From contig CAVSGM010000001.1 in NCBI GenBank assembly GCA_963727485.1, positions 992,001 to 1,056,000 of the forward strand: DNA of 64,000 nucleotides, in the 5' to 3' direction. A program made the position numbers and the translations under genes. Within the stretch, counting starts at the first letter, position 1; every line of letters begins with the position of its first letter. Below the pieces are notes generated by a model. It searched no databases. It saw only the letters and a list, made by a program, of their open reading frames with translations, and was not told where the DNA came from. Below are positions 814 to 7,881 of this stretch, in pieces. This stretch comes from an uncultured delta proteobacterium (lineage in GTDB: Bacteria; Myxococcota; Myxococcia; SLRQ01).

Positions 814-3507
814 ATGCGCACCCGGACCCCCCTCCTCGCCCTCGTCGCCGCCGTCGCCGTCGCCTCCTGTGGCGGCGGGAAGCTCACCCAGAGCGGCACC
901 ACGCCCATCGACTTCCCCGAAGGCCAGGCGCTGCAGTTCTCCGGCGACCCGGCCCACAACGCGGTCTTCGGCGTGGACCTGTCGGTGTACACGGGCCCCA
1001 TCGACCAGTCCGAGGTCGACTGCCTCTGGGACTCGGGGGTGCGCCACGTCATCGTCGGGACCCAGAACCCCGAGCTCTCGGCCCAGCAGCTCGACATGGC
1101 GGTGCGCGAGGGGATGACCGTCGACGAGTACGTCTACGTCTACTGGGGCCGGGACATGCAGACCCAGGTCCAGACCGCCCTCGACCTGGCGCAGGGGCGG
1201 CCGGTGGGGCGCATCTGGCTCGACCTCGAGGACAGCTCCGGGGGCCGGTCCGTGTCCACCCTCAAGGGCCTGGTCCAGCAGGGCCTCGACGCCTGCGGCT
1301 CCATGCCCTGCGACATCTACACCGGGCCGAACTTCTGGAAGACCACCATGGGCGACACCGCGTCGTTCTCGAACGTGGCCCTCTGGTACGCGCGCTACAA
1401 CGGCAAGCGCACCCTCGGCGACTGGCCCACCGAGCACTTCGGCGGCTGGGCCCAGCCCACCGGCAAGCAGTGGAACAGCCAGTACGTCTGCGGCCTCAAC
1501 GCGGACGTCGACACCATCCAGGTCCACCAGCAGCCCCAGAACGTCCACAACGGCAACGTGCCCCCGGACGACGGCCAGCCCCCGGCGGCCCCCACCGGGC
1601 TGTGGCCCTCCGACGGCTCCTCGGTGCACACCAACTACCTGCGGATGATGACCGACGTCACCCCGCGGGCGACCCAGTACCAGTTCGAGCTCCAGTACTG
1701 GAACGGCAGCAGCTGGGCCAAGTACTACACCTGGAGCCGCACCACCGACGCGGTGCGCATCAACCCCTCGCACCCCAACGCCGGCTACCGCTTCCGCGCC
1801 CGGGTGCAGAACAGCCACGGCTGGTCCGGGTGGAGCGGCTGGTCGACCTTCGACTTCGGCCAGGTGATCAACCCGCCGCCCCCGAGCGGTGGGGGCACCG
1901 GTGGCGGCACCGGCGGCACCGGCGGCACGGGTGGCGGCACCGGCGGGACGGGTGGTGGCACCGGTGGGACCGGCGGCGGCACCGGCGGCACCGGCTCCGG
2001 CGGCACCCCCGCCCCGACCACCCCGGGCAACCTCTCGCCTGACGGCACCACCGTCACCGGCAGCTCGGCGACCCTGAACGTCGACAGCGTCGCCAACGCC
2101 TCCCAGTACGAGTTCGACATCGAGTACTGGACCGGCAGCGCCTGGACCGCCTACTACACCTACACCACCAGCGGGCCCACCAAGACCTTCTACCCGGCCT
2201 ACGACACCGACTACCGGTTCCGGGTGCGGGCGGCCAACGCCAGCGGCTGGAGCGACTTCTCGAGCTTCGCCAAGTTCACCTTCTCCAGCGGGAGCGGGTC
2301 GAGCGGCGGGACCGGGAGCGGCGGGACGGGCAGCGGCGGCACGGGCACCGGCGGCACCGGCTCTGGTGGCACGGGCACCGGCGGCACGGGCACCGGCGGC
2401 ACCGGCTCCGGCGGCACCGGCGGCGCCACCGTCCCCGCGACCCCCGGGAACCTCACCCCCGCGGGCACCACGGTCACCGGGTCCGCGGCGACCCTGAACT
2501 GCGACAGCGTGTCCGGCGCCACCCAGTACCAGTTCGACATCCAGTACTGGACCGGCAGCGCCTGGGGCGCCTACTACGCCTACACCACCAGCGGGCCCAC
2601 CAAGACCTTCTACCCGGCCTACGACACCGACTACCGGTTCCGGGTCCGGGCGGCCAACGGCAACGGGTGGAGCGCCTACTCGAGCTACGCGCAGTTCACC
2701 TACAGCACCAGCGGCTCCACCGGTGGCGGCACCGGCTCCGGCGGGACGGGCTCGGGCGGCACCGGCGGCACCGGCGGCACCGGCTCCGGCGGCACCGGCT
2801 CCGGCGGCACCAGCGGCGGGACCACCGTCCCCGGCGTCCCCGGGAACCTCACCCCCAACGGCGGCGCCCAGATCTCCACCGCCTCGGTGACCCTCAACAG
2901 CAACTCGGTCGCCTCCGCCACCCAGTACCAGTTCGACATCGAGTACGTGAGCGGCGGGACCTGGACCTCCTACTACACCTACACCTCCTCGGCCCCCACC
3001 AAGACCTTCTGGCCGGTGAGCGACGCCGACTACCGGTTCCGGGTGCGCGCCGGCAACGGCAACGGCTGGGGCGACTGGTCCGGCTACGCCACCTTCACCT
3101 TCGGGACCCCGAGCGGCGGCAACACCTCGGGCGGCACCACCGGCGGCACCGGGGGCTCCACCGGCGGCGGCACCGGTGGCACCAGCGGCGGCGGCACCGG
3201 GGGCACCACCGGGGGCACCTCCTCCGGCGCCCCGGCCACCCCGACGGGCCTGGCCCCCAACGGCACCACCGAGACCTCGAGCTCGGTGACCATGAGCTGC
3301 GCCTCGGTCTCCGGCGCCACCAGCTACACCTTCGACATCCAGTACGTCCACAGCGGGAGCTGGGCCAGCTACTACACCTACACCACCAGCACCAACTCCA
3401 AGACCTTCTGGCCCCAGGTCACCGGCACCAGCTACCGGTTCCGGGTGAAGGCCACCAACGCCAACGGCGACAGCAGCTGGAGCGGGTGGGCGAGCTTCAG
3501 CTACTAG
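814..3507 (+). CDS. Lipoprotein: GH25 (lysozyme/muramidase-like) domain plus five FN3-like repeats with Gly/Thr/Ser linkers
   Basis: Lipobox-like VAVASC; GVDLSVY, IWLDLED (DxE), IYTG, LWYARY and ADVD GH25 motifs; five copies of ATQYQFDIxY..W..YYTYT..YRFRVRAxNxxGWSxWS. Confidence 0.85.
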   Translation: MRTRTPLLALVAAVAVASCGGGKLTQSGTTPIDFPEGQALQFSGDPAHNAVFGVDLSVYTGPIDQSEVDCLWDSGVRHVIVGTQNPELSAQQLDMAVREGMTVDEYVYVYWGRDMQTQVQTALDLAQGRPVGRIWLDLEDSSGGRSVSTLKGLVQQGLDACGSMPCDIYTGPNFWKTTMGDTASFSNVALWYARYNGKRTLGDWPTEHFGGWAQPTGKQWNSQYVCGLNADVDTIQVHQQPQNVHNGNVPPDDGQPPAAPTGLWPSDGSSVHTNYLRMMTDVTPRATQYQFELQYWNGSSWAKYYTWSRTTDAVRINPSHPNAGYRFRARVQNSHGWSGWSGWSTFDFGQVINPPPPSGGGTGGGTGGTGGTGGGTGGTGGGTGGTGGGTGGTGSGGTPAPTTPGNLSPDGTTVTGSSATLNVDSVANASQYEFDIEYWTGSAWTAYYTYTTSGPTKTFYPAYDTDYRFRVRAANASGWSDFSSFAKFTFSSGSGSSGGTGSGGTGSGGTGTGGTGSGGTGTGGTGTGGTGSGGTGGATVPATPGNLTPAGTTVTGSAATLNCDSVSGATQYQFDIQYWTGSAWGAYYAYTTSGPTKTFYPAYDTDYRFRVRAANGNGWSAYSSYAQFTYSTSGSTGGGTGSGGTGSGGTGGTGGTGSGGTGSGGTSGGTTVPGVPGNLTPNGGAQISTASVTLNSNSVASATQYQFDIEYVSGGTWTSYYTYTSSAPTKTFWPVSDADYRFRVRAGNGNGWGDWSGYATFTFGTPSGGNTSGGTTGGTGGSTGGGTGGTSGGGTGGTTGGTSSGAPATPTGLAPNGTTETSSSVTMSCASVSGATSYTFDIQYVHSGSWASYYTYTTSTNSKTFWPQVTGTSYRFRVKATNANGDSSWSGWASFSY

Positions 3508-3510
3508 GCG

Positions 3511-4626
3511 TCAGTCGGGGACCCGGACCGTCCGCTTGCCCACCAGGTTCATCCGGGTGCGGCGGATGGTCTCGGCCTCGACCACCTCGCCTTTGGCGTA
3601 GCGGAAGCGCAGGGCGCTCTCGGGGCACTGCACCACGCAGGCCCCGCACTGGATGCACTGGTCCGGGCGGGCGATGACCACCTTCCGGCGCTTCCCGTCC
3701 ATCTGGAGCACGTCGCGCGGGCAGACCTGGACGCAGTCGGCGGCGCCGGTGCACTTCTCCTCGACCAGGTCCACCGACGCCGGGTTGTGGAAGGTGTTGA
3801 TGTAGCTGCCGTACCAGGGGGTGGTGCCCTCGAGGTCGGCGCCGAGGATGCCGGCGGCGACGAGGCTGGTGGCCCCGGTCCAGAGGAGGGGACCGGTGGC
3901 GTAGGCGCCGAGGCCCACCAGCACCATGGAGGCGACGCCGAAGCCGAGGAGCGCGAAGGCCCCCAGGGTCGGCCACCGCCAGCCGGGGCCCACCTTCAGC
4001 CAGGGCAGCAGGGCGAAGCAGCCGGCGACCACGGTGAGCAAGGAGGCGGCCGCGGCGGCCATCACCCGCCAGCCCGCCAGGGGCCAGACCCCCAGGGCCA
4101 TGAGGAAGAGGGTCGGCACCCCCCACATCGCCGCCATCTCCATCCGCTCCCAGAGGGGAAAGCGCATCTTGCGCTCGTCCTTGTGCACCCGCCGGCCCCG
4201 GTCGAGGAAGCCCGGGAGATCCTCGAGGCGCGCCGGGCCCCAGCGGGTCTCGAAGCCGGTGGCCTCGGTGATCTTGTGGTGCTCGACGCCGGTGGCCGAG
4301 AGCTGGGGGAGGATGAGCTCCCGGTGGGTCACCTGGTCCGCGAGGCCGGAGGTGCGGATGGCGGAGATGACGTCGTGGTGGGTGAGGTGGCCCCCGCCGG
4401 CGGCGCACCAGACGTTGATGCCCCGGCTGTCGGCCACCAGGACGAAGGCGTCGCGCCCCCGCAGGGCGTCCAAGAGCCGCCGCACGGTGAGGGTGAAGTT
4501 CCCGGTGACGAGGACCGGGGCGTCGGGGCCCGGGTGCCCCACGCGCTTGAGGCCGGTGCGTGCCCGGTGGGGAAGCATGCGCAGGACCGTGTCCCGCACG
4601 TAGGCCGGCAGATCGCGGAGCCTCAT
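3511..4626 (-). CDS. HgcAB-like fusion protein (CdhD/HgcA-type corrinoid domain + TM helices + ferredoxin)
   Basis: PVLVTGNFTLT, cap helix GINVWCAAGGG, LILPQLSATG, WGPAR; hydrophobic middle; C-terminal CTGAADCVQVCP and CIQCGACVVQCP; ATG overlaps the upstream TGA (ATGA). Confidence 0.88.
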   Translation of the reverse strand: MRLRDLPAYVRDTVLRMLPHRARTGLKRVGHPGPDAPVLVTGNFTLTVRRLLDALRGRDAFVLVADSRGINVWCAAGGGHLTHHDVISAIRTSGLADQVTHRELILPQLSATGVEHHKITEATGFETRWGPARLEDLPGFLDRGRRVHKDERKMRFPLWERMEMAAMWGVPTLFLMALGVWPLAGWRVMAAAAASLLTVVAGCFALLPWLKVGPGWRWPTLGAFALLGFGVASMVLVGLGAYATGPLLWTGATSLVAAGILGADLEGTTPWYGSYINTFHNPASVDLVEEKCTGAADCVQVCPRDVLQMDGKRRKVVIARPDQCIQCGACVVQCPESALRFRYAKGEVVEAETIRRTRMNLVGKRTVRVPD

Positions 4627-5285
4627 GACGCGGCCTCCTTCACCCCGTGGACCAGGAGGAAGCTGTCCTCCCAGATCCGGGTCTCGGTGACCGCGGCGAA
4701 GCCGGCGGCGCGCACCGCGTCGGCGAGGCCCTCCACCGGCCGGGTGGTGGTCTGGGTGAGCAGGTAGGTCAGCGCGGTCGAGGGGGCCCGGCGCAGGTGG
4801 TACCAGGCGCGGCGCCCGGCGCTCCGGGGCACCACCTCGTCGGCGATGACCAGCTCGCCGCCGGGCTTGAGGCGGGTGCGGGCGACCTTCAGGGCGTAGG
4901 CCCGCTGCTCGAAGGAGAGCTCGGAGAAGGCGAGGCAGGAGACCACCGCGTCGAAGGTCTCCTCGGGGAACCGGTCCTCGATCTCCGCGGCGGCGAGCTG
5001 GAGGAAGGTGACCTGGCCCTCCCCGGGGACGGGCTTGGCCCGGGCCACCTCGAGCATCCCGGCGTCGAGGTCGATGCCGAAGACCTCGGCGCCCCGGGCG
5101 GCGCAGGCCAGCGACACGCCCCCGGTGCCGCAGCCGATGTCGAGGACCGTGCGTCCCGGGGCGGCGACGGCGCCCGCGAGCCGCCGGTAGACGTCGTCGA
5201 TGCGGCCGCGCGAGAGCCGGGCGATGCCCTGGTCGTAGCGCTCGGGCGCCGACTCCAGGACCTTCATCCACACGAAGCTGCTCAC
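4623..5285 (-). CDS. Class I SAM-dependent methyltransferase (resembles corrinoid-protein-associated CpaM-type)
   Basis: VLDIGCGTG motif I, FDAVVS, LKPGGELVIAD; start and stop both overlap neighbouring genes. Confidence 0.85.
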   Translation of the reverse strand: MSSFVWMKVLESAPERYDQGIARLSRGRIDDVYRRLAGAVAAPGRTVLDIGCGTGGVSLACAARGAEVFGIDLDAGMLEVARAKPVPGEGQVTFLQLAAAEIEDRFPEETFDAVVSCLAFSELSFEQRAYALKVARTRLKPGGELVIADEVVPRSAGRRAWYHLRRAPSTALTYLLTQTTTRPVEGLADAVRAAGFAAVTETRIWEDSFLLVHGVKEAAS

Positions 5286-5890
5286 AGTTCACCTCGGGGG
5301 GCGGCGCCGTCGAGGAAGCTGGTGACGGCGAGGTCGGGGATCTCGTCGAGGGTGGGCCAGGCGCCGCCGCTCCCCCAGTGCTGCACGTAGAGGAGCGAGA
5401 GGGTGCCCACGAAGAGGAGGGCGAGCTGGGGGGTGGGGCGGTCGCCGCGGAGCTCGCCGGCCCGGGCGCCCTCGGCGAGGACCTTCTCCACCCGCATCAG
5501 GTAGGGGCCGAGGTGGGCGACGATCGCGGGGTAGGTCTCGGGGCGGAAGGCCAGCGCCTCGCGGACCACCACCTTCTGGAACGCCTCCTCCTCGCGGATC
5601 ACCGAGACGTCGGCCTCGGCGAGGGCGAGGAGGCGGTCGCGGAGGGGGCCCTGGTCGTCGAGGTCGGCGTAGCGGGCGGCGGCCCGGCGGGCACCCTCGG
5701 CGATGACCTCGAGGAAGAGGCCGGTCTTCCCCTCGAAGTAGTTGTAGACGGTGCCCTTGGCGTAGCCGGCGTCGGTGGAGATGGCGTCGATGCTCGCCCG
5801 CTCCAGGCCGTCGCGGGCGAAGTGGGCGGCGGCGGCCTCGAGGAGGCGGTGGCGGGCTTCGGCCTTGGCGTCGGCGGTGATCCGGGGCAT
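5282..5890 (-). CDS. TetR/AcrR family transcriptional regulator
   Basis: LLEAAAAHFARDGLERASIDAISTDAGYAKGTVYNYFEGK HTH; ATG at 5890. Confidence 0.93.
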   Translation of the reverse strand: MPRITADAKAEARHRLLEAAAAHFARDGLERASIDAISTDAGYAKGTVYNYFEGKTGLFLEVIAEGARRAAARYADLDDQGPLRDRLLALAEADVSVIREEEAFQKVVVREALAFRPETYPAIVAHLGPYLMRVEKVLAEGARAGELRGDRPTPQLALLFVGTLSLLYVQHWGSGGAWPTLDEIPDLAVTSFLDGAAPRGEL

Positions 5891-5905
5891 CTGCGGTGGG
5901 TTCCA

Positions 5906-5933
5906 GAATATGGGTGACTGGTCACCCATATTC
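5906..5933. promoter_or_regulatory. Perfect inverted repeat, likely TetR operator
   Basis: GAATATGGGTGAC-TG-GTCACCCATATTC (13-bp arms, 2-nt spacer), 15 nt upstream of the tetR start. Confidence 0.8.
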
Positions 5934-6065: not shown

Positions 6066-7881
6066 ATGGCCGATACCGAGTCCCGAAGCCCCCCGAGCGC
6101 CACCGGCGTCGCCGAGGCGATGGTCGGCGAGTACCGCGAGCTCACCCCCGCCGCCTTCATCCTCGGGGTGATCCAGGGCGTGGTGTTGAACCTCGCCTTC
6201 GTCTACGCGGGCCTCAAGCTCGGGTTCACCATCGGCGGGTCCACGGTGGCCGCGATCCTCGGCTACGCCCTTCTTCGTGGAGTCATGAAGAAGGGGACGA
6301 TGATCGAGAACAACATCAACCAGACCATCGCGTCCGGCATCAACACCGCCGGGACGGGGATCATCTTCACCCTCCCGGCGCTGTTCATGCTCAACGCCAA
6401 GTGGGTGAGCGAGGGCCACGCCGGGCTCTCCTTCCACGTGGCGCCGCTGCTCCTCGGGGGCATCGCCGGGGCGCTGCTCGGGGTGGTGCTCATCATCCCC
6501 CTGCGCAAGCAGATGATCGACCTCGACCGTCTGCGCTTCCCCTCGGGGGTCGCCACCGCGGTGATCATCCGCTCGGGCTCGGCGGGCATGGAGAAGGCCA
6601 AGCTCCTCGGGTGGGGCTTCCTCATCGCCGCGGGGTGGAAGCTGCTCCTGGTCTCCGGGTGGATCGACGTCAAGGGCCTCATCGCCGACGAGACGCTCAA
6701 CTACGGCTTCGGGGTGCTGCCGGCGTACATCTGGCCCCTGCTCTCGCTCTCCCTGATGAACATCGCCGCGGGGATGCTCGCCGGCCGCGGGGGGCTGGCG
6801 TTCTTCGTGGGCGGGGCCCTGTCCTGGTGGATCATCTCCCCGGCGGCGGTGCACCTGGGGTGGACGCCGGCGACCCTCCACGGCACGGCGCTGGCCGGGT
6901 TGGATCTACGGCAACATGCTCCGGCCGCTGGGGATCGGCGCCCTCATCGGTGGGGCGCTGATGGGCGTGGTGGTGAGCTTCCCGGCGATCAAGAGCGCCA
7001 TCAAGTCGCTGGCCAGCGCCTCCAAGAGCTCGGGCGCCGGCGCCTCCAAGGCCGGCCAGGACGAGATGCCCCTGTGGGTGCTCATCGTCGGCGGCGTCGC
7101 CGCGGTGGTGCTCTTCTTCGTCGCCTCGATCCTGACCCCGGGGGTCGACCTGACCCAGGCGCTCATCTCCTCGGTCGTGGGCACCATCTGGCTGGGCCTC
7201 GCCGGCCTCATCGTCGCCCAGGCCACGGGGATGACCGACATCTCGCCGATGAGCGGCATGGCGCTGATCTCGGTGACCCTGATGATGTTCCTCCTTGCCG
7301 GGAACATCGCCGCCGCCATGGTGGTGGGCATCGCGGTGAGCGTCGCCATCGGCCAGGGCGCCGACATGATGCAGGACCTCAAGACCGGGTTCATGGTCGG
7401 CGGCCGGCCCATCAAGCAGCAGATCGCCCAGTTCTCGGTGACCTGGATCGGCGCGGTGGTCGCCATGGGCGCCATCTACGTCCTGTGGAAGGGCGGGCCC
7501 GGAGGGGCGAACGGCTTCGGGCCGGGGACCTCGCTCCCGGCGCCGCAGGCCGGGGCGCTGATGGGCATCATCAACGCGGTGAAGAGCGGGCACGTGCCCA
7601 TCGACAAGTACCTGATGGGCGGCGGCATCGGCGCCCTCCTCGGCGCGGCGCCCATGGCGGGGCTGGGGGTGCTCATCGGGCTGGCCATGTACCTGCCCTT
7701 CGACATCACCTTCGGCTACGGCATCGGCGTGGCCCTGGAGATGGCGCTGGAGCGCAAGTACGGCGCCGCCTTCTACGACCAGAAGATCGTCCCCCTGGCG
7801 GCGGGGCTCATCGTCGGCGAGGCGATGATGGGCATCGGCAACGCCGGCTTCCAGATCATCCGCTCACTCCACGGAGGCTGA
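6066..7881 (+). CDS. OPT/YSL family oligopeptide transporter (frameshift near 6900)
   Basis: YAGLKLG, ENNINQTIAS, PLRKQMID..LRFPSGVATA in one frame; ADMMQDLKTG and LPAPQA in ORF 6916..7881. Confidence 0.88.

Follow-up and report, generated by a model that had tools for sequence, protein, structure and literature searches.

Among the closest described counterparts of the system examined here are the mercury-methylating pair HgcA and HgcB, as in Pseudodesulfovibrio mercurii ND132, and the large subunit (AcsC/CdhE) of the Wood-Ljungdahl pathway's corrinoid iron-sulfur protein (CFeSP). According to PMC11588087, the Co(I) of HgcAB takes up a methyl group from S-adenosylmethionine (SAM), giving a Cys-ligated methyl-Co(III), from which a radical or carbanion is proposed to pass to mercury, with electrons from ferredoxin. 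Further papers give the HgcA cap motif as N[V/I]WC[A/S][A/G/S]GK and tie the GK cap and the C(M/I)ECGA motif to mercury-type HgcAB (PMC10087281), tie HgcB Cys73 and a C-terminal Cys pair to mercury handling (PMC7305189), and treat an N-terminal CU/CC extension as an HgcA feature (bioRxiv 2022.07.06.499078). Fused versions of the hgcA and hgcB genes are described there as limited in distribution and of open function (PMC4646819, PMC10087281), with that of Kosmotoga pacifica serving as a reference (PMC7438021), and two organisms carrying them, P. furiosus and M. methylutens, gave no methylmercury in culture (PMC4646819, PMC5893877). What such HgcAB-like fusion proteins do has been an open question since 2015, and there is also dispute over the native role of HgcA. 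Here we analyse a three-gene cassette, encoding a TetR-family regulator, the methyltransferase CpaM and an HgcAB-like fusion protein, located in a 64,000-nt stretch of DNA (hereafter the window) from an uncultured delta proteobacterium of the Myxococcota (GenBank assembly GCA_963727485.1, contig CAVSGM010000001.1, positions 992,001 to 1,056,000). The locus is a real, intact and ordinary member of an already named two-gene family whose function is predicted only, and CpaM looks like a near-obligate partner of the fusion.

A sequence-only reading of this DNA had described the last gene of the cassette as encoding, in one 371-aa chain, a corrinoid domain, transmembrane helices and a ferredoxin, and this layout was borne out by Pfam, structure modelling and hydropathy. 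The CdhD/HgcA domain, on which that reading had staked its assignment, was found at residues 19-135 (PF03599, E 1.9e-11) and the ferredoxin at 288-339; altogether the chain runs from a corrinoid domain (about 12-145) through membrane helices (about 158-265; hydropathy peaks at about residues 183-244) and a dicluster ferredoxin (282-340) to a conserved, Cys-free 36-aa tail. The AlphaFold2 model, built on a 40-row alignment (pLDDT 80), displays a Rossmann-type domain, the helical region 158-265 and the ferredoxin. With Foldseek, its best match was an HgcA model (9a0b_A, E 1.6e-10), followed by CFeSP; VIA-align superposed it on CFeSP 2h9a_A with a Z of 16.1 and an rmsd (root mean square deviation) of 2.1 over 120 residues, and the sequence itself matched CFeSP PDB 2h9a (E 6e-12). 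The comparison with HgcA, fused and CFeSP sets that the sequence-only reading had proposed, by hidden Markov models and by tree, placed the protein in the fused family and apart from HgcA. The NCBIfam model NF043039 ('HgcAB-like fusion protein') was passed with 399 bits against a cut-off of 285 (residues 9-340), while the models of HgcA (NF040863; 165 against 275 bits), HgcB (NF040864; 55 against 99) and AcsC/CdhE (NF003195; 63 against 306) all failed. In a FastTree phylogeny of corrinoid domains (157 rows, from 244 domains found, thinned at 72% identity, with one long outgroup row), the fusion fell inside a 135-row group without the cap lysine (support 88), apart from a 20-row group of AGK-cap HgcA (support 84). 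The claim that the protein is distinct from HgcA was thus upheld by both cut-off failure and tree. The claim that the system is new was not, as NCBIfam already names both partners (NF043039 and NF043040), both models are passed and nothing defining differs; relative to other NF043039 members, this copy has in addition a dedicated TetR with its operator, and the subgroup into which it falls occurs in oxygen-respiring Gemmatimonadota, Myxococcota and Pseudomonadota. One homologue (P0346, labelled K. pacifica) aligns with the fusion from end to end at 40% identity and agrees with it in the Gly type of cap, in a first cluster of three Cys and in the tail.

The fusion shares with HgcA and HgcB the corrinoid domain with its cap Cys, the membrane domain and the dicluster ferredoxin, but differs from them in a series of positions. 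Its cysteines are at residues 74, 203, 292, 298, 302, 324, 327, 330 and 334. On translation, the segment GINVWCAAGGG lay where the sequence-only reading had put it (Table 1), and the replacement of the cap Lys by Gly (NVWCAAGG, against the HgcA motif) was likewise real. Across the aligned rows, the cap Cys is kept in 134 of 135 non-HgcA and in all 21 HgcA rows, while at position 78 all 21 HgcA rows have Lys, and 100 of the 135 others have Gly. Cys74, conserved in this way, is predicted to be the lower cobalt ligand, the ligation itself being a prediction only. The first ferredoxin motif (C292-x2-A-x2-C298-x3-C302-P) is devoid of its second Cys, which leaves seven cluster cysteines instead of the eight of HgcB; of 119 close homologues examined, 116 are complete, and in all of these the same Cys is replaced by Ala, Ser, Thr, Lys or Arg, and among distant representatives (72 complete of 150), 17 of the 18 without that Cys have a long Cys-free tail. 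We take the C-x5-C-x3-CP pattern to be a [3Fe-4S] site, so that the clusters are probably one [3Fe-4S] (or an open-site 4Fe) and one [4Fe-4S]. Consequently, the two-cluster ferredoxin of the earlier reading stood as a dicluster ferredoxin, but not as an HgcB-like pair of [4Fe-4S] clusters. The second cluster motif reads CIQCGA, against C(M/I)ECGA in HgcB, and the absence of HgcB-type C-terminal cysteines was confirmed, as no Cys follows C334; none of the 116 close homologues has two or more Cys in its tail.

The N-terminal CU/CC extension is also absent, the first Cys being residue 74 and the start codon overlapping the cpaM stop. Altogether, the fusion lacks Cys73, the C-terminal Cys pair, the GK cap, C(M/I)ECGA and the CU/CC extension. 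It further differs from HgcA and HgcB in being one chain on a separate tree branch, in its pairing with CpaM, which hgcA loci lack, and in having TetR instead of ArsR. With CFeSP it has only the corrinoid-binding fold in common, restricted to the C-terminal domain of AcsC/CdhE; the fusion has in addition a cap Cys and a membrane domain, and its host carries no second CdhD-family gene. Because the mercury-handling features are absent, and two cultured organisms with fused genes are reported to have made no methylmercury, the substrate of the cassette is probably not mercury, and such fused genes should not be counted as mercury-methylation markers. Neither the P. furiosus nor the M. methylutens protein was among the 120 matches listed by our homologue search.

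Three further observations concern the breadth of the family. A ferredoxin-fused protein (P0255), whose cap is the canonical AGKG and whose tail has two Cys, branches with HgcA, so that the term 'fused HgcAB' spans two different things. P0188, P0191, P0198 and their relatives, a 16-row tree group, have an extra hydrophobic N-terminal region of about 150 aa, with no Pfam match, and a divergent, NxWCSSLAG-like cap. Finally, a 218-aa record (P0123) is identical to the C-terminal part of the fusion; its start was probably called too late, with loss of the corrinoid domain, an error which would hide such genes in annotations.

The sequence-only reading had also tied the corrinoid/ferredoxin membrane module to the neighbouring methyltransferase, and this part was supported. 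We compiled 112 loci, which are not independent of each other (18 from GTDB, 80 from metagenomes and 14 from a search of the phylum), and counted those with at least 800 nt upstream, using our own profile with a 70-bit floor. On this count, 64 of 68 loci with a non-Lys cap have cpaM no more than 250 nt upstream or in the same frame, in contrast to 0 of 27 canonical AGK hgcA loci. The GTDB search returned 33 loci; with 15 ferredoxin-only ones set aside, the remaining 18, which are full-length relatives, all have cpaM directly upstream. Within the phylum, an over-cut-off fusion is present in only 3 of 301 genomes (one of the 298 without being the unpublished G196), and all 3, G163 included, carry an over-cut-off CpaM, against 0 of 12 genomes with separate hgcA-type genes. 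Moreover, 12 of 24 long representatives scanned (out of 150 listed) are single chains of CpaM and corrinoid protein that exceed the CpaM cut-off; 8 of them contain a ferredoxin and 4 do not. Co-folding of the fusion with SAM and CpaM, which the earlier reading had suggested, scored 0.72 against 0.00 for the best control, a mark reached by 116 of 157 solved but only 2 of 215 mismatched pairs, in a calibration that holds only roughly here. The runs share at least 59% of contacts, with a partner pLDDT of at least 81, and bring residues 23-25, 66, 79-93, 122, 356 and 358 of the fusion, that is, the helix after the cap (79-93) and the tail residues 356/358 among others, against residues 73-76, 96-104 and 124-130 of CpaM; docking of CpaM on the corrinoid domain is thus likely on these models. 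Taken together, adjacency, single-chain fusions and co-folding make CpaM appear as the near-obligate partner. With respect to gene order, the succession cpaM-fusion is conserved, while the upstream position of TetR (see below) is not; the rare co-occurrence of the homologues with this methyltransferase, which the sequence-only reading would have taken as evidence against itself, was not what we observed. A correlation of CpaM and fusion identities (r=0.94, 990 pairs) was set aside as inflated by shared ancestry. A literature search found no paper joining CpaM with corrinoid, or HgcAB-like with fusion, most subscription papers being beyond its reach, and the passages on fused hgcAB at our disposal, which exclude supplements (e.g. 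Podar fig. S6), link the fused genes to no neighbouring methyltransferase.

Two side observations belong to this partnership. In L035 and L135 (both from G163), fusion and cpaM are on separate contigs, each beside the same short tandem-repeat DNA, possibly as one operon broken by a repeat insertion or by assembly. Chains of CpaM, corrinoid and membrane regions without ferredoxin were seen at L098:7254-8876 and L107:1654-3279 and in P0215, P0228, P0244 and P0268.

CpaM itself passes NF043040 ('corrinoid protein-associated methyltransferase CpaM') with 274 bits against a cut-off of 180, and it is the only over-cut-off copy in the host genome. A DIGCGTG motif (motif I) and the acidic D72 are present, from which SAM binding and methyl transfer are predicted. 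The AlphaFold2 model (pLDDT 94) has a class I fold, with TM-scores of about 0.65-0.72 to Coq5, CmoA and PmtA; the relationship to UbiE/MenG, CmoA, PmtA and ArsM is limited to this common fold, since identity is about 20% and the scores for all of them stay far below cut-off (UbiE 53 against 158 bits, ArsM 33 against 263). Among 45 rows, M7, E11, Y17, D18, M77, L118, D149 and E150 are invariant. ArsM was considered as an identity and ruled out, by this score and by the lack of any invariant Cys such as ArsM would need. CpaM has an amphipathic helix (156-177) and a conserved lid, as in small-molecule methyltransferases; fold and Atlas searches for a substrate returned generic class I matches only.

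Based on these observations, we propose the following scheme, which we regard as about equally apt to prove right or wrong. CpaM would dock on the membrane protein at its B12 domain and transfer the methyl group of SAM to reduced cobalt, cob(I)alamin; the Cys-ligated methylcobalamin would pass the methyl, with reversed polarity, to an electron-poor and probably non-mercury target at the membrane, in the form of a radical or carbanion; the built-in ferredoxin would re-reduce the cobalt at each turn; and TetR would repress the three genes until its ligand arrives. By analogy with HgcAB, we infer that the fusion binds cobalamin and Fe-S clusters, that its Co(I) is methylated by SAM and that polarity-reversed transfer follows; the first half-reaction, SAM to cobalt, is probably shared with HgcAB. 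The target would be electrophilic, because CpaM and SAM would suffice for a nucleophile, with no call for B12 or electrons, and on such chemical grounds the 'loads or unloads' of the sequence-only reading can be narrowed to 'loads'. Our guess of a lipophilic organic electrophile or an organometalloid, prompted by the Cys-free TetR and by scattered detoxification and export neighbours, is the weakest step. More broadly, and with somewhat less than even chances in our estimation, CpaM and the fusion may represent an uncharacterised two-component membrane SAM/B12 enzyme class, here in oxygen-respiring bacteria, which reverses methyl polarity towards a non-mercury electrophile, as a sister system of mercury methylation.

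Several points weigh against this scheme. (i) The co-fold model contained no cobalamin, and the CpaM contact residues presumably sit, from class I topology, at the adenine/ribose side of the SAM pocket, so that a methyl facing the cobalt is not supported by the co-fold. (ii) CpaM retains a UbiE/MenG-like lid with invariant residues and could hold a small substrate of its own. (iii) Four loci (L035, L055, L071, L110) are without an intact adjacent CpaM despite enough upstream DNA. (iv) With the exception of TetR (11 loci), every neighbour family is confined to at most 4 of the 84 non-Lys loci, and hence no third enzyme or transporter names the substrate. (v) CobS was not found in the host genome (93% complete), which suggests that the host salvages B12. 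(vi) A [3Fe-4S] cluster and oxygen-respiring hosts would fit awkwardly with very low-potential Co(I) chemistry. (vii) A loader is not strictly needed, since, according to PMC11588087, HgcAB methylates its Co(I) with SAM and without a partner enzyme.

Point (ii) leads to the alternative that survives best, although we hold it to be unlikely: the fusion would be a B12/Fe-S reductase, acting in dehalogenation or in a chalcogen, metalloid or quinone-type reduction, and the docked CpaM would methylate the product from SAM. The conserved lid and the amphipathic helix of CpaM suit such a role. The predicted dock gives the lid no part to play, and B12 together with mixed 3Fe/4Fe clusters is reminiscent of reductive dehalogenases. 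In addition, heterologous HgcAB is reported to dechlorinate CCl4 (bioRxiv 10.64898/2026.04.26.720869). In contrast, ferredoxin is missing from the four over-cut-off CpaM::corrinoid-membrane chains and, at L098 and L107, from the adjacent genes too, so that the tie between methyltransferase and corrinoid protein is more constant than the supply of electrons. Almost all rows retain the cap Cys, a residue associated with methyl-Co chemistry, and no dehalogenase (RdhA/QueG) was among the fold or family matches listed, which are not exhaustive.

A second alternative, which we consider improbable, is an inducible methylase of mercury or another soft metal(loid), where the culture negatives would reflect repression or missing uptake and CpaM would supply SAM or handle the metal. 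Podar et al. indeed noted that the absence of methylmercury from P. furiosus need not mean that the fused protein is unable to form it (PMC4646819). A distant subgroup also occurs in metal contexts, with arsP downstream in L087, arsR and Nramp near in L079, and arsR, a CC-motif gene, a CxCxxC tail and merC in L119. Nevertheless, the window's fusion has none of the mercury-handling features enumerated above, its TetR has no Cys, and no ars or mer genes are adjacent, as the sequence-only reading had stated; MerB was not found either, though the control of that search matched nowhere, and the tested fused-gene organisms are reported not to methylate mercury (PMC4646819, PMC5893877). The least probable reading, that CpaM is a reactivase only, as in the SAM-dependent repair of methionine synthase, while the fusion strips or shuttles a methyl or alkyl group from another donor, e.g. 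a TetR-sensed methylated or halogenated compound, draws on the homology of the corrinoid domain with the CFeSP methyl carrier and on the need of corrinoid methyl-transfer systems for reductive reactivation (PMC11588087). However, neither a donor nor an acceptor methyltransferase recurs around the cassette, a further CdhD-family gene is absent from the host, and translational coupling at equal level and single-chain fusion would suit a catalytic partner better than an occasional repair enzyme.

As to L119 (550-4059), the run there consists of arsR, an uncharacterised gene, a CC-motif membrane gene, cpaM, a fusion with CxCxxC tail and merC. The CC-motif protein, which matched no Pfam or Atlas family, seems to us to resemble MerT/MerF, and its CC domain forms one chain with the corrinoid protein in P0207 (36% identity) and P0265. 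This subgroup, unlike the window's copy, may act on mercury or another soft metal.

The regulator proved to be an accessory and not a fixed part of the system. TetR orthologues with 57-84% identity are directly upstream of cpaM in L002, L004, L018 and L059, and of 13 host genomes searched 2 contain an orthologue, in each case next to the cassette. However, of 59 loci with enough DNA, just 9 have a TetR directly upstream, and these regulators form at least two groups, unrelated to each other (about 20-24% identity), so that TetR as a defining element, as in the sequence-only reading, had to be abandoned. Its view of an inducible, TetR-controlled module fared better. The 28-bp palindrome upstream of tetR (Table 1) has an 18-nt core that recurs unchanged in L002, L004 and L018 and is retained in part by L059; a search of the 5.55-Mb genome gave 1 match at up to 3 mismatches, in a genome with 9 palindromes of this size or larger. 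It is likely, from its sequence, to be the TetR operator, overlapping the promoter. Since the palindrome is conserved and single-copy, and the orthologue is tied to the cassette, repression of one operon by its own TetR is likely. Promoter and terminator scans of the locus found none, the sigma-70 scan included; no RNA dataset was listed as containing the cassette; and solved relatives of the TetR gave only generic matches with respect to its ligand (best E 6e-12). Overall, the corrinoid/ferredoxin module, its tie to the methyltransferase and the probable repression by TetR were retained from the original interpretation, in contrast to the novelty, the defining role of TetR and the two [4Fe-4S] clusters.

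These results offer three handles on the fused proteins: CpaM, which goes unmentioned in the accessible fused-hgcAB passages, is a partner enzyme that belongs in any assay; the predicted docking surface can be mutated; and the single-copy TetR operator permits a ligand screen. Should the polarity-reversing SAM/B12 class be real, TetR and its operator would make a direct reporter for finding the substrate, which could bear on what HgcA-type proteins evolved to do.

Named relatives of the cassette are in Gemmatimonadota, Myxococcota and Pseudomonadota, and the distribution is patchy. The oxidase family PF00115 was present in 15 of 16 hosts of close relatives, and the present host has two such genes. 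This host genome also contains a single CdhD-family (PF03599) match, six over-cut-off B12-binding domains and two POR-family (PF01558) matches, the latter being a possible electron source. Its sole periplasmic-binding-protein match (PF01497, BtuF-like) is in two pieces (G000:C2:903204-903870 and C2:171691-171790), and it carries tRNA-SeC. Recent transfer of the cassette is not shown, because GC (0.73-0.745) and third-position GC (GC3; 0.97-0.99) of the three genes match those of the genome (0.73 and 0.97); fusion, TetR and CpaM had no match in plasmids or in viral contigs. Occasional operon neighbours elsewhere, which we regard as leads only, are PEMT-like (L016, L085, L106), nitroreductase (L063, L120) and DinB (L107) genes, as well as ABC-2/MMPL exporters beside the cassette (L073, L076, L085, L068).

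Table 1. Positions of the cassette features in the window
Feature	Position	Strand	Description
tetR, TetR-family regulator	5890-5282	minus	202 aa; PF00440 (TetR_N) match
cpaM, class I SAM-dependent methyltransferase	5285-4623	minus	220 aa; GTG start; NF043040
HgcAB-like fusion gene	4626-3511	minus	371 aa; NF043039, PF03599 (CdhD), Fer4
Cap-helix region GINVWCAAGGG	4390-4422	minus	Translation; Cys74 = predicted lower cobalt ligand
Ferredoxin motifs of fusion	3622-3753	minus	C292-x5-C298-x3-C302-P and C324-x2-C327-x2-C330-x3-C334-P
Perfect inverted repeat, candidate TetR operator	5906-5933	strandless	13-bp arms, 2-nt spacer; 16 nt upstream of tetR start

The three genes are translationally coupled in the order given by the sequence-only reading, as confirmed by their coordinates and by the overlaps GTGA (5285-5282, tetR/cpaM) and ATGA (4626-4623, cpaM/fusion). 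A 593-aa open reading frame (5292-3511) was rejected as the fusion gene, as the homologues start at the 4626 ATG. Parts of all three genes are covered by short, near-identical contigs, although no single one spans the whole. These come from salt-marsh, sediment and soil runs, 4 in number and each from a different study, and one run may be the source of the window itself. By Pfam, the cassette is flanked by a GH25/fn3 protein and an OPT transporter. The former (814-3507, plus strand), an 897-aa likely lipoprotein with a GH25 lysozyme domain, repeated fn3 domains and Gly/Thr linkers, stops 3 nt from the stop of the fusion gene. The OPT-family gene (6066-7881, plus strand) is split by a frameshift near 6900, which probably arose in assembly: at 6900, one base is absent from a contig of run X4 (with 14 other differences in 665 letters), and in the relative G301 the OPT gene is a single 593-aa frame.

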